IMG/VR virus record: IMGVR_UViG_3300032335_001233
Coordinates: 1-64,000 of that record
Origin: a virus
Lineage: Duplodnaviria > Caudoviricetes
Direction: 5' to 3' (one strand)
DNA length: 64,000 bases
The notes beneath the pieces were generated by a model, which searched no databases, was not told the origin of the DNA, and worked only from the letters and a program-made list of their open reading frames with translations. Numbering within the stretch: the stretch's first letter is position 1; each line of letters starts with the position of its first letter. Positions 2,884 to 63,460 of the stretch are shown one piece after another. Position numbers and translations under genes: made by a program.

Positions 2884-3150
2884 TTATACCAAACCCAGGG
2901 CCATGGCCTTGTAACCAGCAGCCACAATCTTGCGGCTGGGCTTGCCCATGACATACTCAGTCACTTGCACGCCATTACCGGCCTTGCGGCTGTTGGCGTA
3001 TACAGCATAGCCAGCTTGACGAATGCGGCTAACTTCAGCCGAAACATTCTTGATGCCGAAACGCTTGGCAGCGGCAGCTGGGCTAACGGCGTCGCCGTTG
3101 TAGAGGGCATTGAACAGACGGAAAGTCTTGGTGTCTTCATTGAAACGCAT
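2884..3150 (-). CDS. Small winged-HTH DNA-binding protein
   Basis: HTH-like AAAKRFGIKNVSAEVSRIRQAGY; SD AGGAG before MRFNE. Confidence 0.65.
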   Translation of the reverse strand: MRFNEDTKTFRLFNALYNGDAVSPAAAAKRFGIKNVSAEVSRIRQAGYAVYANSRKAGNGVQVTEYVMGKPSRKIVAAGYKAMALGLV

Positions 3151-3300
3151 AAAAGTATCTCCTATTAGATAAGATGCTGTTGCGTACAGCATAGATCTAT
3201 TGTATAATAGTTACTTGGTACAATGCAACAGTTTTTGAATAAATTTAACCAAAAACTCTTGTGTAATTCACCATTGTAACAAAATTTTAATATGCGCCGT

Positions 3301-3308
3301 TATAAATA
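3301..3308 (+). promoter_or_regulatory. T4-type late promoter
   Basis: Exact TATAAATA upstream of 3332..3763. Confidence 0.65.
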
Positions 3309-3331
3309 CACCGCACACTGGAGAGCGTAAC

Positions 3332-3763
3332 ATGTTGCAGATCATCACCACCATTACTCAAGACCTAGAACAACTCATTGTGGACGACCCAGTGCGTCCC
3401 GAAATTCCCGTTGACCGTAGAGTCAACGCCAACAGCCGTATCTACATGCTCAAGGACGGTGACCAAACTCAGGCAGTGACTTGCGTAAAGTTTCTCAACA
3501 CCATTCCAGCCGCAGTGGATGACTTGGTGGATGCAGTGGATTTGGCCACCACGGCTGTGTTCTACACCATTTGGAGCTATGCCTCAGGCGCAGGACGTAC
3601 CTTGATTCAAGAAGCTCAACGAAGTATCGAAGCTGAATTCCCCAACATTGAAACCTATGTCACGCTCAGCCCCAAGACCGAAATGGCACGTAAGTTTCAC
3701 CTCAAGAACGGTGCTGGTGTGTACCGGGAAAATCCCGATACTGTAAACTACATCTACAAGTGA
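3332..3763 (+). CDS. Phage hypothetical protein, possibly GNAT-like fold
   Basis: 143 aa; FYTIWSY..GAGRTL and LSPKT..A..FH; GGAG SD and late promoter. Confidence 0.7.
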   Translation: MLQIITTITQDLEQLIVDDPVRPEIPVDRRVNANSRIYMLKDGDQTQAVTCVKFLNTIPAAVDDLVDAVDLATTAVFYTIWSYASGAGRTLIQEAQRSIEAEFPNIETYVTLSPKTEMARKFHLKNGAGVYRENPDTVNYIYK

Positions 3764-51705: not shown

Positions 51706-52728
51706 TCAGTACTTATATATTGCGTTGGGGCCACGTCCAGGCCAGTAATCCACGCAAGGTCCATCCCTTGAAATGTCCACAGTCAAACAGTGCAAGCCGC
51801 CGTCCCAGAACCCTCGGCATCTAAAATCAATCACATGTACTGTGAAACCTAGATTTTCTAGTTGTCTACATACGTCGTCGTCCTCAACAATACAACAGAT
51901 GTTACGTTCATCAATGACCAACATGTTGACTTCAAACACTGTTTCGGCGCTGTTACCAATCCAATGTTCAGCATAATCAACTATACTGTCATTAAAAATT
52001 TGAAGATCTACTCCCGGAACCCACCATCGACCGTTGTATCCGTTGTGTTTTCGTTTAACGGTGGAATTGTTGAGTGTCCAAGTTGACCAGCCTGGAAATG
52101 TACGACTGTAGTCACTGCAATAATGCGAAGTAAAAATTTTCTGGGGCGCCACAGGGCAAAAAACCCCATCACTGTGGTCTCCAGTGTGGGTCACATGCAC
52201 TCTATAAGATTTGGCCAGTTCCTGACAGGCTTGATTTGCAAAGGAGGCACCTGAAGACCGAAAATCATAATCTATAAACAGGTCTCTTCCAACTCTTACT
52301 GTGCTGGGGAAGTTTAGATAGCACATAGGATCAGGCCTACTTCTGTCAAGAATTTTACAATCTAATCCAGCAGATCTATATGTGTTAACAATGTTGTCAA
52401 AACCAGTTACTTGATTTTCATATTGTGGAATCACATACAAAGTGTCATTCAAGGTCATGGCCCAGTCTCTAGGAGTTATAGGCGGTTTGACTAAATTACC
52501 TTGATAATCTCGAAATTTATCTTCTAGATCAAATTTTGGTCTTTGTACGTTGATTCCTAGACTTTGCAATTTGTGTTGAAACTTGTCAAGATCATGCTTG
52601 GTCATCTCTGTAATTTTGCAAAATAGATCTTCTACCCTATTAGGGAATGTTGAATACCAGGATGCTGGATAACAATCGCCTAACCAAACTTCGCGCAAAG
52701 TTTGAAAACCAGTATGACTTTTAATCAT
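51706..52728 (-). CDS. Second amidinotransferase-family protein
   Basis: L.EVWLGD, TPRD, HSDG, VNML, GGLHCLT. Confidence 0.85.
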   Translation of the reverse strand: MIKSHTGFQTLREVWLGDCYPASWYSTFPNRVEDLFCKITEMTKHDLDKFQHKLQSLGINVQRPKFDLEDKFRDYQGNLVKPPITPRDWAMTLNDTLYVIPQYENQVTGFDNIVNTYRSAGLDCKILDRSRPDPMCYLNFPSTVRVGRDLFIDYDFRSSGASFANQACQELAKSYRVHVTHTGDHSDGVFCPVAPQKIFTSHYCSDYSRTFPGWSTWTLNNSTVKRKHNGYNGRWWVPGVDLQIFNDSIVDYAEHWIGNSAETVFEVNMLVIDERNICCIVEDDDVCRQLENLGFTVHVIDFRCRGFWDGGLHCLTVDISRDGPCVDYWPGRGPNAIYKY

Positions 52729-54176
52729 GATGTTTTGATCTTGCCCAGCAGTTGTTTTAGCTTGTTGCTTTGAACGTCAGCTGACACTTTGTTTGTGTCA
52801 GCTGCGGGTTTTTCCCAAGCTGGAGTTCCTGTGGCACGTTCCCATTTTGGTGTAGCATCGTCAGTGTCATTGGATGAGTTAACCGAGCTTTTTGCCTTGA
52901 TTGAGTCATAGATACTGGGTTTCTTGAATGCAGAGTTTTCGCCTTCGTCGCCGCCGGCATCAGTAATACGCATGGTTTCAATGTTGTACTCCAAATCAAT
53001 TTTTTGACCAACGCCGGTCGAGCTTCGAGATTTCATACACTGTATTTGATACTTGCCACGTTCTTTCATGGCGCGACTAGTAAAGATACCAAACACATTG
53101 TCAGCAGTGTTGATTTTAGAGATACCACCCGAAATGTGGCTGTGATCAAACTCAATCTCTTCTACTGCTGATCTATTCAACTGTGAAGCAGTGACCATGA
53201 GCATGCCCAGTTCCTTGGCCAAGTTGCGCAGTTCTTCACTCACATACTTGTCTTTCACAAACAAGTCATTGGGTGAAACCTTGGCTGATACTGGCATCAA
53301 GAGGTCAAGATAGTCCACCATGATAAAATCCACTCTGTGCCCGGTCTGTATTTGGTACTCTTTCAAAAACGCACGAATGTCATTGATGTTTGACTGTGCT
53401 GGCAACGCCTTGACGCGATAGCTGCCGGCCTTTTTGCCCACCAGTTTGATCTTGAGAGCTGCGGTTTCTTTGTCGCGACGTATGTCCTTGGTACTCATCT
53501 GTGTGAGCATGGCTGCTGTACGAAGACCTGTGAGTTCTTCGCTGAGTTCTAGAGTGATGTACACACCATGTAGCCCTTGTTGTACCCAGTTCAAGGCAAT
53601 GTTCATCATCACAAGGCTTTTGCCTGAGCCAGACCCGCCTGCAAAAATGTTGAGTTCGCCTCGACTGAATCCACCATACAACAATCGATCCAGTTGCGAC
53701 CAACCCGTTGAGACTTGTCCGCCTGCATCAAAGTATTTGGCAAACATGCCTTCAGGATCCAGCCAAAAATCTGTACCAAGGTCCTTGGTCAAACTGATCT
53801 GCACAGCATCCTTGATCAGTTTTTCCACAGGCTCAAACTCACCTTTCTCCAGCAGGTCTGCAGATTTAAGAATGGCTCGCTCCAGCTCTTGACGACGGGT
53901 AAATGCTTCAAACTCTTGCATGAACCAGTCATAGTGACCAGAGTTTAGATCTGGAACTGATTGCAAAACAACACCAGTGGCGGCTTTTATCTGTTGCAGG
54001 TCAGGCAAGGTTTTGAATTTGTCTGAGTGTTCCTGGAGGAATTTAGCAGCAGGTCTAAGACTGCGGTCAAAGTTCTCAGGATTGTAAATGTTCTGAACAC
54101 GCACATAGCTCTGTGCATCCTCCAACATCATTTCCAAGAACAAACGCTGCACATCAATGCTGTAGTCTTTTAACAA
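52725..54176 (-). CDS. Replicative DNA helicase (T4 gp41/DnaB-like)
   Basis: GGSGSGKS, LELSE, VDYLD, ASQLNR, KSR. Confidence 0.93.
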   Translation of the reverse strand: MLKDYSIDVQRLFLEMMLEDAQSYVRVQNIYNPENFDRSLRPAAKFLQEHSDKFKTLPDLQQIKAATGVVLQSVPDLNSGHYDWFMQEFEAFTRRQELERAILKSADLLEKGEFEPVEKLIKDAVQISLTKDLGTDFWLDPEGMFAKYFDAGGQVSTGWSQLDRLLYGGFSRGELNIFAGGSGSGKSLVMMNIALNWVQQGLHGVYITLELSEELTGLRTAAMLTQMSTKDIRRDKETAALKIKLVGKKAGSYRVKALPAQSNINDIRAFLKEYQIQTGHRVDFIMVDYLDLLMPVSAKVSPNDLFVKDKYVSEELRNLAKELGMLMVTASQLNRSAVEEIEFDHSHISGGISKINTADNVFGIFTSRAMKERGKYQIQCMKSRSSTGVGQKIDLEYNIETMRITDAGGDEGENSAFKKPSIYDSIKAKSSVNSSNDTDDATPKWERATGTPAWEKPAADTNKVSADVQSNKLKQLLGKIKTS

Positions 54177-55140
54177 TTTGCTTCTTCCTCAATTCAATCT
54201 TGACTCGGCTGGTTTCTCGAGCCTGGTGAATAGTTAGCACGGTTCCCACCACGCCATATTTCTTCACAGCATCGTTGACATCTTTGATGTCAGCACCCCA
54301 GTCGGGCATGCTCACTGCCCAGCCCAGGGCCACAGCACGATCTACTAGACTCATGCCAGCTGTGTCTTGATCCGGGACCACAGTGATTTCTCGATCCAGG
54401 CTGCGAATCATGCGTGCCTGTGCATCTGAGATGTCGTTGTGCATCACAGCCACTCCATTGATCGATAGTGCATCAAAAATGCCTTCCATGACCAAGACTC
54501 GTGTCCAGTCTGGCTGTTGCAGATCTATACCAAACACATACCCCGGGGGGCTGTGTGAAATATAACGTGGTTGACGATGGTCCAAAAACCTTGCAGTCCA
54601 GCCCACAATGTGGTTGTCATGTGTGAACGGGATGATCACATGTGGCCTGACCCAATGGACGCCGTCATTCTGAATCTGTGTCATGGCCGGAAAGTCTTCC
54701 GGAACTCCGCGACTGCGAAGATAATTCCAGTAATGTTCATGTTCTGGGTGCACCAGTTCAGCACAGGGCGGAAGTTCGGCCTCTTCAAACGCAATGTTCA
54801 ACAACTGCTGTTCTACCCGTCGACGATCATCCAAGATGCCTATGACGCTGCGCTGACGCAGGCTTTCAAGATTGATGCGCTCAATTTCCAAATTGTCCAA
54901 GCCCAACCAACCCAACAATCTGCGAGCTCGAAAACTGAGGTTTCGCCCCAGCTGAAACGATGCTGTATATCCACAATTGAAGCAATGATAGCTCCAACCA
55001 CCATCCCAGCTTTTGACACCACCACGTTGACGACGATCTGGCTTGTCACCATTGTGCTCACAACACACAGCATTGAAACTGAGCCAGCCCGACGGTGTAG
55101 TTCTACGTCGGGCTGGCAAATAGTCAAGGATGTCAAGCAT
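54154..55140 (-). CDS. DNA primase (Zn finger + TOPRIM)
   Basis: CC.H...HCFNC; EGIFDA; PDQD; KDVND. Confidence 0.9.
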   Translation of the reverse strand: MLDILDYLPARRRTTPSGWLSFNAVCCEHNGDKPDRRQRGGVKSWDGGWSYHCFNCGYTASFQLGRNLSFRARRLLGWLGLDNLEIERINLESLRQRSVIGILDDRRRVEQQLLNIAFEEAELPPCAELVHPEHEHYWNYLRSRGVPEDFPAMTQIQNDGVHWVRPHVIIPFTHDNHIVGWTARFLDHRQPRYISHSPPGYVFGIDLQQPDWTRVLVMEGIFDALSINGVAVMHNDISDAQARMIRSLDREITVVPDQDTAGMSLVDRAVALGWAVSMPDWGADIKDVNDAVKKYGVVGTVLTIHQARETSRVKIELRKKQIVKRLQH

Positions 55141-56269: not shown

Positions 56270-56647
56270 ATGGGCAACACACTATTTGAAAAACTGACAG
56301 AAAAATATCCCTTCATCACGCTGTGCGTGTACGCCAACCAAGAATACGTGGGCATTGTACAGAATCGTGACGACATGGTGACCACCATCTACGATTTTGG
56401 TGCCATAGTGGATCACCAAGAAAAAATTGTGTATCTTGATCTTGCAGCACAGTGGTGGTGGGAAAGCAATCGATCAATACCCATAAACATCTTTCTCAAG
56501 CAAGACTGGGAACAATTCCGCCATACTCTACGCACTTTTAACAACCGTGATCTTGAAATCTTGCATGGTCCTACCTGTAGTTTGCTGGATCTTGTGCGCA
56601 AAAAAGGCAAGCGTCGCAGTATTACTCTTGTGCGCCGGATTGATTGA
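56270..56647 (+). CDS. Phage hypothetical protein
   Basis: EYVGIVQN, WWWESNRSIPINIFL. Confidence 0.75.
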   Translation: MGNTLFEKLTEKYPFITLCVYANQEYVGIVQNRDDMVTTIYDFGAIVDHQEKIVYLDLAAQWWWESNRSIPINIFLKQDWEQFRHTLRTFNNRDLEILHGPTCSLLDLVRKKGKRRSITLVRRID

Positions 56648-57191
56648 GTAAATTCATGTGTAAAGCCACCAATGCAGCATAAGAAATTGCATGTGCTTTT
56701 TTGAACGTATAGCCTCGACTGGTGTCACCATCCCATACTGATGCAAACACTTCGGGCCAAGGCCGTCGCTGTAGGTGTGCTTTTCCTGGACGAATAATCG
56801 ATATAAAAGCTGCCAGACGCGGTATGTTGTCTGGCTTCATTTCTTTCAGCAAATCATAATAGTTGCCCACGTGTGCCAACTGGCTGACCCATTGAGCGTC
56901 GGTCCACAGTCGACTCCAGGGCGGCGTTGCTGCCAGCATGTCTTCATAGTGTTCAGGTGTTTGAATCAGGCTGTACACACTCATGTTCAAAAAATCCAGT
57001 TTGAAATAGCCACGAGTTTCTGCTGTTTCATAGTCTAGGGCTGCACACTGATTCACAGGATCCCACGGAATGTCTGTGACATACACACCTGTCAAATGTC
57101 GCCGGCCATCGCTTAGTCGTGCAGGGGTATGCTGTATCAAATTCAACACAGCACTACGATCAGCAAAGTCCAAGTCAATATCTGCGCTCAT
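56622..57191 (-). CDS. Miniature DnaE (Pol III alpha)-like protein
   Basis: DIDLDF, H.TGV, GYFKLDFL, IRPG, YTFKKAHA.SYA. Confidence 0.85.
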   Translation of the reverse strand: MSADIDLDFADRSAVLNLIQHTPARLSDGRRHLTGVYVTDIPWDPVNQCAALDYETAETRGYFKLDFLNMSVYSLIQTPEHYEDMLAATPPWSRLWTDAQWVSQLAHVGNYYDLLKEMKPDNIPRLAAFISIIRPGKAHLQRRPWPEVFASVWDGDTSRGYTFKKAHAISYAALVALHMNLLNQSGAQE

Positions 57192-57536: not shown

Positions 57537-58211
57537 TTACCATCCTGCTTGTTTTAAAATTTCTTTGGCATACTCTTGGTCTGCAGAATAATCTGCAAAT
57601 CTCTTTTGCCAAACATCAGAATCAATGTAGGGCCAGATCATGGCCAATTGCTCACTGTTGATATCGCTCAAAAACTTTTGTCCTGATTCACTGTTGTAAA
57701 TTACCCAAGGAGAAATTCTTCCGGCAGTGATGTCATAACACACAGCATTGTGGTTGCCGTAGCGCAACATGTCATGAGCCGGGTGACCAGTGCGTTCCTG
57801 CCAAGTCATGCTGTGCTCTACTGCTCGTGCCAGGGCATCTTGCACAGCTTCTAAACGCAGATACTCCATAAGATAGTCAGTATAGAACTGGTCCGAACTC
57901 CAACGATCAATCTTTTTTTGATTGCGCAACAACCAGGTCATAAACTGTGTGGGGTTGATCACTCGGGTGTTTACACAGTACCGCCCCCACTTCACAAATG
58001 CACGATAGTATGGCGACTCAGCAAAGTCCTCAAAAGTCTTGAGCCGGGCCGAACCTTGCATGGTTTCGTAAAATTTGAGATAGGCCTGCAAGCCCAACTG
58101 TACACCACGCTCACTTTGTTCCAGTCGTCTACGCTTGGGTTCACACATGTGAACTGCCGCAGACGACTCTTTCATAAAGGTCTTTTTGCAAAATTCACAA
58201 GTGTAGCTCAT
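57537..58211 (-). CDS. Zn-finger-containing phage protein
   Basis: CEFC...H.C at the N-terminus. Confidence 0.75.
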   Translation of the reverse strand: MSYTCEFCKKTFMKESSAAVHMCEPKRRRLEQSERGVQLGLQAYLKFYETMQGSARLKTFEDFAESPYYRAFVKWGRYCVNTRVINPTQFMTWLLRNQKKIDRWSSDQFYTDYLMEYLRLEAVQDALARAVEHSMTWQERTGHPAHDMLRYGNHNAVCYDITAGRISPWVIYNSESGQKFLSDINSEQLAMIWPYIDSDVWQKRFADYSADQEYAKEILKQAGW

Positions 58212-59364: not shown

Positions 59365-59599
59365 GAGTTTTCTTTAGATTATACAACACAAACAACTGAT
59401 CCAGCAACTCACGCATGGCCGGATCCGTTTCGCACATGGCCAACACTTGATTTATTTCACTACGATATTCTCTCATGGCAATGCCTTCACTTTTTGTCCA
59501 ACCCACCAACTGCCGCTTGGTTTGACCCATTTTGCGAGCGTAGATACGATCGTCCACACGTTCGTAAACGTAGGTGGCACCTGGCTCAAGACTGCCCAT
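59357..59599 (-). CDS. Hypothetical protein
   Basis: 80 aa; coupled to neighbours. Confidence 0.7.
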   Translation of the reverse strand: MGSLEPGATYVYERVDDRIYARKMGQTKRQLVGWTKSEGIAMREYRSEINQVLAMCETDPAMRELLDQLFVLYNLKKTHE

Positions 59600-59943
59600 T
59601 AGTGATTCCTCATGCCACCAAACACACAGTTGAATAGCATGTTTGAATCGCCATCGTTGATCACACGGTGAAATGCCCCATCTGGAATCAACACCACTGA
59701 CCCTGGGCCAACATTGAAGGGCTTGCTGTCTTCATTACCCACAATCATCTTGCCAAAGCCTTGCACAAATACATAAACTTCTTCTTGTCCCGGATGCCTG
59801 TGTCCTCGAGTCTGCTTGCCACGATACAATCGTGTGCTACTGACCACTAGATTGTTTAGTGCACGATTGTCTTTGACCAAATAAGTGTCATCATCCTTGA
59901 TGGTTTCTCCACCAATGTCGGTATTTGAATAATGTAGTTGCAT
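59599..59943 (-). CDS. Cupin domain protein
   Basis: GHRH..QEEVY.F..G.G.M, IPDGAFHRV.N. Confidence 0.85.
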   Translation of the reverse strand: MQLHYSNTDIGGETIKDDDTYLVKDNRALNNLVVSSTRLYRGKQTRGHRHPGQEEVYVFVQGFGKMIVGNEDSKPFNVGPGSVVLIPDGAFHRVINDGDSNMLFNCVFGGMRNH

Positions 59944-60477: not shown

Positions 60478-61143
60478 TCAATGATTATTGACCAATTGCT
60501 CTAACTTGCTGGCCACACACTGTAAAACCCAGTTGCGATCAGCCAATGGCAGTTGGTGTTGCAGCCAAGATTGGTGGTACTGTCGACACTGTTCCGCTGT
60601 TGATTGCAATTGTGGCATTTGATCTATTAAAGAATCTATACCCCTAGGTTTGAGCAACATGCTTACGTCAATTTTGTTTGTGGGCTGCACTAAACGCATC
60701 TGCATCAAGGTCCAATTATAATCGTTCAACCATTCTAGATAAAGCTCGGCTGCTTGTTGTAATTTTACTTGTTGTACCAGATACTGTATTTGTTCGTACA
60801 CTGTTCCGTGGCGACCCATGAGATTTTCAACAGTGGGCCTTGTCAATGCATCTCTTGCTGCCCAGGTCCACATTTGATCACGAACCGGTATTACCAGCCA
60901 TAATGGGGCCAAGGGCATGCGCAGTAGTCTGTCAATGCTGTGACTGCCTATGTATTCGAATGGCATATTGTTGATGGCTTCTATTAGATCATGATCATTT
61001 AGTCTACGTTCAAGACTTTTGATTGATGCTGACGGAGTAACTGAACCATTGGCAATGTTATGCGGCAACCCCCAGGTCTGGTTGCTACAATTGACCACAA
61101 AGTCACCGCCAGTGCCACTCACATAGCTGATCACAGTTTTCAT
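60478..61143 (-). CDS. Hypothetical protein (sulfotransferase/P-loop-like N-terminus)
   Basis: ISYVSGTGGDF start. Confidence 0.6.
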   Translation of the reverse strand: MKTVISYVSGTGGDFVVNCSNQTWGLPHNIANGSVTPSASIKSLERRLNDHDLIEAINNMPFEYIGSHSIDRLLRMPLAPLWLVIPVRDQMWTWAARDALTRPTVENLMGRHGTVYEQIQYLVQQVKLQQAAELYLEWLNDYNWTLMQMRLVQPTNKIDVSMLLKPRGIDSLIDQMPQLQSTAEQCRQYHQSWLQHQLPLADRNWVLQCVASKLEQLVNNH

Positions 61144-62600
61144 TGCCATTCCAGTTTTTCTTGTGTGAATGGATAGTTGGCTTCTCGGTAGTAGGCCTTG
61201 CGTTTGGTTAGATGGCGTTTGGCAAACTTGCAGGTACTGGTAATGTCCCAAATCTGCACATGGTCTTTGTCTTCGGCTCGTCTAATACCTCGACCAATAC
61301 TCTGTATCACTCGTGTAAAACTTTTGCCAGACTCTACCATCACAAGGTTAAAGATTCGAGGTATATTGATGCCCACAGCAGCCACACCATAGGTGGCCAC
61401 AATGATCTTGTCTGTGGCTGTGGCCACAGCATCATATTCAGCCTGTCGGTCAGTGCCCTTGGTGGCTCCCGACACAAACACAGCACCTTCGCCCAGTCTT
61501 TCCACAAGAGCTTGGCCGGCTGCCACACGATCCACCAGCACCAAGGTGTTACCAGTTTCATTGACTTCGCGTATCAAGTTGGCCATGGCATCCAAGCGTC
61601 CTGACTCTTCCAGTAGATACTTGAGTTCGCTTTGATAGTTGTTGAATTCCACATGATCCACCAACTGCACCACATTGACATGACACTGTGCTAGCACGCC
61701 TTGCAGTTGCAGTTCATTGGCACTGAGTCTGCCCACTACTGGTCCCAGACTCACCAACAAGCTCACACTTTCAAATTTTTCCTTGGGCACAGTGCCAGTG
61801 AGACCCCAGCGAATAGGAATATGGGCCATGGGTCCTGTGAGCAGAGTTTTTAGTGCATCGGCCTTGGCCATGTGCACCTCGTCCACGATCACACATACCA
61901 CATCTTCAATAAAGTCTTGTATGGTAATGTCGGCAGTGCCTGATCGAGTGTTTTTCATCAAGACATTGAGACTTTGCCAGGTACAGATGGTGTGAGTGCG
62001 GCCGTGTTCTTTTCTGTCACCAAAATACACCCCTACATCCAGCCCCACGTTCACAAAGTCACGTTCGGTCTGTCGCACAAGGTCTTTGTTGGGCACAATG
62101 ACTATGCTACGTCCATGTGCTTGCACTGCCGAACTCAAAGTTGCAGTCATAATAGTCTTGCCAGCACCTGTGGCCACTTCTTGTATACACTGTGGGTTGG
62201 CCAAAAAGTTGTTGACAATTTCAACTTGATAGTCTCTCAGCATAATGGGCTGACCCTCGGCTGGGTGACCTGTGGGCCAGGTTCTGTGTGCCCATGAATG
62301 TTCTTCCACAGTGTTGAAATCAAAAGTGGTACAGTAGCTTCTACGATCGTCAATGTCAATGTCGTAGTTCATGCGCTCTAGCACAGGCACAATTTCAGGC
62401 AACAGATTGGTATAGGTGCTGCCGCCCAATTGGAAATAGCTGACTTTGCCATCCCAGCGTCCCAGTCTCACTGCCGGCAAGTACCGAGCGTAGGGCACAT
62501 CATACTTGAATAGGTTTACCAAAACTCGTCTAGCATCAAGATCTAGACCTTCAATCTTGATGTTGACTTCGTCTCGTATTACAATGGTTGCTTGTTTCAT
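61140..62600 (-). CDS. uvsW: SF2 DNA helicase, UvsW-like
   Basis: LRDYQ, ATGAGKT, DEVH, GLTGT, QSIGRGIR. Confidence 0.9.
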   Translation of the reverse strand: MKQATIVIRDEVNIKIEGLDLDARRVLVNLFKYDVPYARYLPAVRLGRWDGKVSYFQLGGSTYTNLLPEIVPVLERMNYDIDIDDRRSYCTTFDFNTVEEHSWAHRTWPTGHPAEGQPIMLRDYQVEIVNNFLANPQCIQEVATGAGKTIMTATLSSAVQAHGRSIVIVPNKDLVRQTERDFVNVGLDVGVYFGDRKEHGRTHTICTWQSLNVLMKNTRSGTADITIQDFIEDVVCVIVDEVHMAKADALKTLLTGPMAHIPIRWGLTGTVPKEKFESVSLLVSLGPVVGRLSANELQLQGVLAQCHVNVVQLVDHVEFNNYQSELKYLLEESGRLDAMANLIREVNETGNTLVLVDRVAAGQALVERLGEGAVFVSGATKGTDRQAEYDAVATATDKIIVATYGVAAVGINIPRIFNLVMVESGKSFTRVIQSIGRGIRRAEDKDHVQIWDITSTCKFAKRHLTKRKAYYREANYPFTQEKLEWQ

Positions 62601-63460
62601 TCTAGGATAACTTTTTTGACCCACTGTCGTTGAGCTATGTCATGCATCATGCGTTCGCGGTTGCCATCAAATTCAATGTCAGCCACAGGATATCTCAAGG
62701 GTCTTGCTTGTGCATTATACACACTCTTGATGCCACGTGCAACAAAAAATTTTGGATGCTGGTCAATGTAATGTTGAATACGGCCATACTGAGTGGCAAG
62801 ATTGCGATCGTGAAATGCCACATAGAAATCCGCCGAGTAGTGATCAAATGGACAAAATGCATCATCTGAGATATACTGGTCATTGTCACGTGCCAAGTCT
62901 TCTACTGTTTTTCCAATCTCACAGTAGTTGAGATACACTGTGCCCCAAGTCACTCGCCAGTCGCCATAGCATTGAGCTATGTCAGCAGGCAGCTGATGCG
63001 TCTTGGGCATGCCAAACCATGTGCACACCAATTTGGCGTGAGAGCCTGCTAGCACAGACTCACATTGGTGCACTGCCAAGTTTAATTCACTCAGTGCACG
63101 GCGCACTATGTCTGGTGCTGACTGCCAAAATTCTGAGTGCTGTTGATCCAACAATCCGTGATGGCATTCAAACACATGGTGAAGGTAATTGAGACAGTCT
63201 TGTGTCCACTCAAACTCACGCTCAATCACCGGCGCATGTGAATTGATGATGGCTATGCAGTGGCGTATCCAGTGCTCAGCAACTTTGCACTGAGTTTGGG
63301 CAGTGCCAAATCCAGAGAATCTGTCAGGGTGGTCCATGGGCCATGCAGTGCGAGCCAGCATGCGCTCAGTCCATAGTTCAGCCAAGGGAGTTTGACGAAT
63401 TCGAAAACGCAACTCTAGATCTCCACTGGGACCTAGATGAATACATAAGTGCTTGGGCAT
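62597..63460 (-). CDS. Hypothetical protein
   Basis: LN.LH..FE, LN..VH..E, Y.EIGKT motifs. Confidence 0.7.
   Translation of the reverse strand: MPKHLCIHLGPSGDLELRFRIRQTPLAELWTERMLARTAWPMDHPDRFSGFGTAQTQCKVAEHWIRHCIAIINSHAPVIEREFEWTQDCLNYLHHVFECHHGLLDQQHSEFWQSAPDIVRRALSELNLAVHQCESVLAGSHAKLVCTWFGMPKTHQLPADIAQCYGDWRVTWGTVYLNYCEIGKTVEDLARDNDQYISDDAFCPFDHYSADFYVAFHDRNLATQYGRIQHYIDQHPKFFVARGIKSVYNAQARPLRYPVADIEFDGNRERMMHDIAQRQWVKKVILE

Follow-up and report, generated by a model that had tools for sequence, protein, structure and literature searches.

A probable C-terminal unit of a split minimal DNA polymerase III alpha in an uncultured jumbo phage

Can a protein of 189 residues be a DNA polymerase of the C family and, if not by itself, what is it part of? 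The question is raised by an open reading frame (ORF) at 56622-57191 on the minus strand of a 64,000-nucleotide stretch of viral DNA (Duplodnaviria; Caudoviricetes; positions 1 to 64,000 of IMG/VR record IMGVR_UViG_3300032335_001233), the whole of which we call the window. An earlier note, made from the sequence alone, had read this ORF as an internally miniaturized DnaE core rather than a split gene, possibly completed by the small proteins encoded next to it. Our results point with good confidence to a different answer: the product is the C-terminal unit (C-unit) of the split minimal polymerase III (Pol III) alpha found in jumbo phages of group 2.2 (Rak2 / PA5oct / Atu_ph07-like), and most likely acts as part of a deoxynucleotide polymerase of two non-covalently associated subunits that assists a family-B polymerase (PolB). 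A split minimal Pol III alpha, found alongside PolB with the other Pol III domains absent, has been described for these phages by Iyer, Anantharaman, Krishnan, Burroughs & Aravind (2021, Viruses 13:63; PMC7824862). The arrangement is already known and the C-unit is an uncultured addition to a published family; new here are the register on Escherichia coli residues 399-781, the conservation figures and ratios of nonsynonymous to synonymous substitution rates (dN/dS), a fused 375-residue form, the size of the environmental family and an explanation by truncation for the missing partner.

The ORF has an ATG start and 189 codons, and the plus-strand reading of the same interval is stop-ridden; the earlier note had placed it correctly without giving the strand. 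All the DnaE motifs that the note quoted are present and in the order that it gave: DIDLDF at residues 4-9, HLTGV at 32-36, KLDFL at 64-68, IRPG at 133-136 and YTFKKAHAISYA at 161-172. The codons for D4-I-D6-L-D8 (57168..57182, minus strand, as are all those that follow) correspond to E. coli D401, D403 and D405, a register that comes from aligning the fused protein described below across its junction. Those for H32-L-T-G35, an H..G palm strand motif that falls in strand E31-37 of the structural model, lie at 57087..57098. K64-L-D66 (56994..57002) is the equivalent of E. coli K553-F-D555, which holds the third catalytic Asp, by hidden Markov model alignment to 2HNH 538-641; R134-P135 (56787..56792) corresponds by profile alignment to the RPG motif in the fingers (E. 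coli 639-640); and K164-K165-A166-H167 (56691..56702) aligns within 2HNH 739-769. In the Pol III alpha of E. coli the catalytic residues are D401, D403 and D555, with D405 an additional Asp that is conserved in the DnaE groups (PMC3919608), and H760, the counterpart of H167, is the steric gate that excludes ribonucleotides (PMC8485763).

The C-unit begins three residues ahead of the DxDxD strand, and its 189 residues cover what takes up 383 in the E. coli enzyme (399-781), about half of that stretch being deleted. At the site of the thumb only 24 residues separate D8 from H32, the segment from the RPG motif to the KSH helix is about 90 residues shorter than in E. coli, and the chain ends about 20 residues past the KKxH helix. 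Pfam detects no PHP, HhH or OB domain in the C-unit, as the earlier note had it; the sole match is a sub-threshold one to DNA_pol3_finger (E = 0.047), DNA_pol3_alpha being below threshold. The description of the protein as a heavily shortened palm-plus-fingers piece of a C-family enzyme is borne out by profile comparison, conservation and structural alignment.

The motif match to DnaE is not chance. In PHROGs the protein falls in phrog_11778, 'DNA polymerase', whose profile of 197 positions it matches from 7 to 193 with residues 3-184 (E = 7.7e-46), and it is 34-44 % identical over 95-98 % of its length to proteins of PA5oct (43 %), Phosso, Atu_ph07 and 121Q and up to 95 % identical to those of other IMG/VR contigs. 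Homologues were found by tblastn in 96 isolated phage genome records including PA5oct, Atu_ph07, 121Q/PBECO4-like phages, Phosso and Vibrio 2.275.O. In metagenomes the family comprises 5515 protein clusters at 90 % identity, and an exhaustive search of 1.8 billion representatives gave 355 clusters at 50 % identity. Nearly all full-length members have 180-215 residues, and no full-length DnaE appeared among the best 150 matches of the exhaustive search.

We built a profile from an alignment of 79 diverse homologues that are 27-63 % identical to the query. Compared to the PDB, this profile matches only Pol III alpha, from E. coli, Thermus aquaticus and Mycobacterium tuberculosis (E = 3e-6 to 3e-4), in a register that places K64 and D66 on E. 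coli K553 and D555, R134-P135 on the RPG motif at 639-641 and K165 and H167 on K758 and H760; phmmer with the single protein found nothing relevant in the PDB. The AlphaFold2 model made from the same alignment has a predicted local distance difference test score (pLDDT) of 96.3 and a predicted template modeling score of 0.88, and was used in place of a single-sequence model (pLDDT 35), which was discarded. With it, the top 18 PDB matches in Foldseek are all C-family polymerases. In VIA-align, PolC (3F2B, residues 970-1296) reaches a Z score of 9.9, Pol III alpha from Taq (460-841) one of 9.4 and the E. coli enzyme (2HNH, 399-781) one of 8.4, with 184-187 of the 189 residues aligned on these three, so that the likeness extends over the whole length of the chain. 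The top 15 chains (Z 9.9-6.3) are all C-family and the first unrelated fold comes at Z 3.8. Since profile, model and PHROGs assignment all point in the same direction, we consider the C-unit to be a genuine piece of a C-family polymerase.

The residues that would form the active site are kept throughout the family. Among the 79 representatives D4, D6 and D8 are conserved at 99, 99 and 97 %, H32 and G35 at 97 % each, K64, D66, R134 and P135 at 100 %, and H167, K164 and K165 at 99, 92 and 80 %, while position 166, an Ala in the window protein, is Ser in 62 of the 79. The motif residues are invariant in 80 closer IMG/VR relatives (77-95 % identical). In pairwise comparisons with the window gene dN/dS ranges from 0.05 to 0.18, with a median of 0.095, at dS > 1, the signature of purifying selection.

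One half of the palm is nevertheless not on this chain. In the Pol-beta-like palm, nucleotide binding involves a helical half with a GS (GxGRGS) motif, and that half is missing from the C-unit because the model begins at E. coli residue ~399. We found it as a separate protein of about 172 residues (the N-unit) with GVGRGS...EFLR near its C-terminus. In Atu_ph07 the corresponding gene is gp316 (177 residues), a second small gene found with PF07733, whose product ends in GVGRGS...EFLE and which, like the N-unit of an uncultured relative of the window phage, G001, scores higher than the curated cut-off on PF07733 positions 18-94 and belongs to phrog_11127. The authors of the Atu_ph07 genome paper annotated their N-unit as a Pol III alpha subunit. 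In an alignment of 42 N-units G-x-G-R-G-S is invariant, and all 42 stop at the EFL[RK] motif or at most about 10 residues from it. The profile of this alignment matches E. coli 286-392 (E = 1e-5) and so ends about six residues before the point at which the C-unit starts.

The two units occur together. By tblastn the counts of matches to C-unit and N-unit are 34/34 for phages of Escherichia, 11/11 for Pseudomonas, 11/10 for Klebsiella, 8/8 for Erwinia, 8/8 for Salmonella and 4/4 for Xanthomonas. The genes are far apart, at 31 kb in 121Q (gp16 and gp56), 43 kb in PA5oct (gp264 and an ORF at 187.5 kb) and about 180 kb in Atu_ph07. Four uncultured relatives (G001, G002, G005 and G006) have both, at a spacing of about 87-100 kb in G001, G005 and G006; in G001 (349 kb, 97 % complete) the C-unit is 90 % identical to that of the window. 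A further genome, G007, was considered as having the N-unit only and was rejected as such: the adjacent DnaB gene is missing too, so the module lies off its contig. In Atu_ph07 (gp316, gp314 and gp312) and in G001 the N-unit is followed by a GroES-like gene and the clamp loader. The GroES/gp31-like co-chaperonin gene of G001 lies at about 258.1-258.5 kb and the clamp-loader large subunit at 259015-259956.

A single metagenomic protein, P0187 (375 residues), has both units in one chain and in the order of DnaE. Its alignment to E. coli 319-417 runs through the junction uninterrupted, and its linker of about 10 residues corresponds to the DnaE stretch between FL(392) and D401. P0187 is either an unsplit minimal Pol III of the ancestral type or a secondary fusion. 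It came from the exhaustive representative search only: a search for longer C-unit homologues gave no fused forms, no relatives of P0187 were found in viral contigs, and metagenome contigs gave only two ordinary full-length dnaE genes.

These results divide what the earlier note had claimed. The C-unit is indeed miniaturized, 189 residues standing for E. coli 399-781, but it is not unsplit, because the N-unit is a separate and co-occurring protein. Nor is it, literally, a piece of a split full-length DnaE, the alternative that the note had set against its own reading: the split enzyme is itself minimal, with about 360 residues in all.

We hypothesize that the two chains form one polymerase. 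The C-unit would supply the palm beta-sheet with the three metal-binding Asp (D4, D6 and D66) and the DnaE-type fourth Asp D8, together with shortened fingers carrying the RPG motif and the KKxH helix with its steric-gate His, and the N-unit would contribute the first, helical half of that palm, including its nucleotide-binding GxGRGS loop. Packing of the GS loop and its helices on the beta-sheet of the C-unit may then complete a Pol-beta-type active site. Since the halves of a split intein would have no space at the termini, the chains are expected to assemble non-covalently, giving a single active site in about 360 residues, approximately the size of Pol beta. The pair would add deoxynucleotides to a primer as directed by a template; we infer synthesis of this kind because the steric-gate His and the finger motifs on the template side are kept. 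Because the thumb, most of the fingers, the (HhH)2 region and the clamp motif are lost, the mode would be short-patch and distributive, that of an auxiliary of low processivity working beside PolB in a T4-type replisome, where it would extend primers, fill gaps or take part in repair. Such a PolB, of 912 residues, is encoded by G001 (at 304 kb) and by G002, and is off-contig for the window's own record. No PHP domain was detected anywhere in that record, in G001 or in G002, with a control detected in 14 of 14 genomes, and phmmer with two full-length DnaEs against all ORFs of the record and of G001 revealed no further DnaE pieces.

Several observations weigh against this proposal. The association of the two units is a prediction from sequence, from the fused protein and from co-occurrence, and the fused form is known from one 2415-bp ENA contig. 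Loss of the thumb, most of the fingers and (HhH)2 takes away most of the contacts that canonical Pol III alpha makes with duplex DNA, so that it is not assured that the enzyme copies a template from a primer. No DnaQ-like proofreading exonuclease was detected in the window's record or in G001. A literature search found no experimental work on any member of the family, only the computational description of 2021. Finally, searches of the window's full 115-kb record with PF07733, Atu_ph07 gp316 and a motif regular expression did not find an N-unit, so that its presence in this phage is inferred from relatives; the motif scan returned one chance GRGS in a 45-residue frame without other similarity.

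The last of these points has a likely explanation. The record (G000) is 115,489 bp long with a CheckV completeness of 33 %, which implies a genome of about 350 kb. It is colinear, in reverse, with about 99-228 kb of G001, G000 position 7 corresponding to G001 position 227,961, and the N-unit of G001 lies at 257.3-257.9 kb. From this colinearity we attribute the absence of the N-unit from the record to truncation of the contig, and the partner gene of this phage would be located some 29 kb past window position 1, off the left end.

The main live rival accepts the two pieces and gives them another job, as a nucleotidyltransferase engaged in untemplated or terminal addition, in modification of DNA ends or primers, or in making a nucleotide signal. 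The Pol-beta-fold superfamily contains many transferases that are not polymerases. The regions with which Pol III alpha grips duplex DNA, namely the thumb, the index finger, (HhH)2 and the clamp-binding region, are missing, and the failure to find a proofreading exonuclease in G001 also fits. However, the motifs that have been kept are specific to the C family and face the incoming deoxynucleoside triphosphate and the template, the steric-gate His being nearly invariant, and both genes lie in replication modules (primase, helicase and UvsW for one, clamp loader for the other). We therefore regard this possibility as unlikely, though it deserves to be taken seriously.

Less probable still is the stand-alone enzyme envisaged by the earlier note, a 189-residue chain complete by itself or perhaps with its small co-transcribed neighbours. 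All three catalytic Asp and the finger motifs are on the one chain, which AlphaFold2 folds confidently by itself. Between 57188 and 59364 are four ORFs, of which those of 224 and 149 residues, upstream of the C-unit, are conserved in synteny, and those of 115 and 236 residues are not conserved in PA5oct, Atu_ph07 and 121Q. Against this, the chain lacks the GS loop, a component of the Pol-beta-like active site that PF07733 also covers; a protein with exactly the missing piece is present wherever the region has been sequenced; and in P0187 that piece is fused to the C-unit. None of the four ORFs resembles DnaE (Pfam, PHROGs) and, with only two of the four syntenic, completion of the C-unit by these neighbours finds no support.

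A functionless, decaying remnant of an acquired dnaE might be suggested by the extreme shortening and the Pfam scores below threshold, but the low dN/dS and the catalytic residues invariant in 81 relatives exclude it for practical purposes, and the length conserved at 185-215 residues over 355 clusters and the synteny across distant jumbo phages agree. Naturally split dnaE genes do exist: in cyanobacteria, as here, a C-family polymerase comes from two distant genes, but there the product is full-length after trans-splicing by an intein and the split point is elsewhere, whereas the phage split cuts the palm itself, separating the GS helix from the DxD strand, with no intein halves. That the phage halves are joined in the cyanobacterial way is scarcely credible even though PA5oct-like phages have an intein in PolB (PMC6892783), because N-units stop within about 10 residues of EFL[RK] and C-units start 1-17 (mostly 1-10) residues before DxDxD, which leaves no space for an N-intein of ~100 or a C-intein of ~35 residues, nor is there a Cys/Ser/Thr +1 context.

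The two-chain polymerase that we favour is closest to the split Pol III of Iyer et al. (phrog_11778 plus phrog_11127), with which it shares a C-unit that binds Mg and template, the presence of PolB, the lack of other Pol III domains and the gene neighbourhood; a distant N-unit with the NTP loop, present in relatives, is predicted for this phage too. With DnaE and PolC (2HNH, 3E0D and 3F2B) it has in common the Pol-beta-like palm, equivalents of D401, D403, D555 and D405, the K553, RPG and KSH (steric gate) motifs, the motif order and the fold. It differs from them in having about 360 residues in two chains compared to 1000-1400 in one, in placing the GS loop off the C-unit polypeptide, and in lacking the PHP domain, thumb, index finger, (HhH)2/beta-clamp motif, OB fold and tau-binding domain. 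X-family Pol beta shares the nucleotidyltransferase superfold and is about as large overall, about 350 residues being sufficient for short-patch synthesis, while the phage enzyme has no membership of that family at the level of sequence. Bacillus DnaE extends primers and then hands off to the main replicase (PMC5627055); primer hand-off at such PolC plus DnaE forks may be a functional analogy.

It is conceivable, and we put it forward only tentatively as something we would not bet on, that the heterodimer of N-unit and C-unit is a competent C-family polymerase of about 360 residues, the smallest known, acting at a T4-type fork together with PolB, for example in extending RNA primers before hand-off. 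If so, these phages would be the only systems known to combine polymerases of the B and C families at a single fork, and would provide a living model of a minimal or ancestral Pol III core. With every active-site residue retained, a two-chain form of this size would mark out the minimal catalytic core of the C family. As bacterial replicases are huge, multi-domain enzymes, the pair would also offer a tractable model for the evolution of that core, in a family that is very abundant in environmental jumbo phages and under strong purifying selection.

The C-unit sits in a T4-type replication module. All on the minus strand, a DnaB-like helicase (gp41-like; 52725-54176; Pfam DnaB_C, E = 9e-22) and a Toprim primase (gp61-like; 54154-55140; Pfam Toprim_2), assigned jointly to phrog_19 and phrog_47 and both syntenic with PA5oct, Atu_ph07 and 121Q, lie downstream, the earlier note having already put a primase and a helicase nearby, and a UvsW-like helicase (61140..62624; Pfam ResIII/Helicase_C/UvsW_N; phrog_16) marks the upstream end of a conserved block. 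The UvsW-like protein is 47-51 % identical to PA5oct gp269, Atu gp80 and 121Q g10. The block runs UvsW, 178-residue gene, 149-residue gene, 224-residue C2H2-like gene, C-unit, convergent 125-residue gene, structural protein, primase and DnaB helicase, and its order and orientation are kept in PA5oct, Atu_ph07 and 121Q, where the C-unit counterparts by neighbourhood are gp264, gp074 and gp16 respectively. In the window the stop codon of the upstream 115-residue ORF overlaps the start codon of the C-unit in an ATGA (57188..57191, minus strand), which we read as putative translational coupling.

The start of Atu_ph07 gp074 (NC_042013.1 58304-58864) has probably been called too late: the tblastn match starts 66 positions before the RefSeq coding sequence (6001 compared to 6067 in the locus), and the annotated 164-residue product omits the DxDxD strand. 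Another homologue, P0254 (233 residues), has about 98 residues of the N-terminal half of the C-unit followed by an unrelated C-terminus that looks pseudouridine-synthase-like by eye, and is probably an assembly or frameshift chimera. A scan of genome contigs with the C-unit protein gave two contigs of metagenome-assembled genomes (MAGs) only. In NZ_JBBAKG010000057.1, a 39-kb contig of a Haliscomenobacter sp. MAG, a C-unit 77 % identical to that of the window occupies positions 3001-3567 of the locus; the contig is probably a mis-binned jumbo-phage contig, or else a hint of the host.

Three neighbouring genes deserve mention. Between the conserved 149-residue and 178-residue genes lies a cupin protein of 114 residues (59599-59943, minus strand; Cupin_2, E = 6e-11), with no counterpart by blastp (E 1e-3) among the annotated C-unit neighbours in PA5oct, Atu_ph07 and 121Q. 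The 224-residue protein (57537-58211, minus strand; phrog_11058, E = 3e-48) has an N-terminal C2H2-like zinc finger, is found in viruses only according to the ESM Atlas, which offers no usable lead on its function, and is kept upstream of the C-unit as PA5oct gp265 (immediately upstream), Atu_ph07 gp77 and 121Q gp14. The 125-residue gene (phrog_11637; 56270-56647, plus strand) is the only opposite-strand gene of a long co-directional block and overlaps the 3' end of the C-unit gene by 26 nt. Its counterparts Atu_ph07 gp073, PA5oct gp263 and 121Q gp17 (34-40 % identity) show the same convergent overlap, of 14-17 nt, and for this protein the ESM Atlas gives only a weak PAS-like lead (score 0.81).

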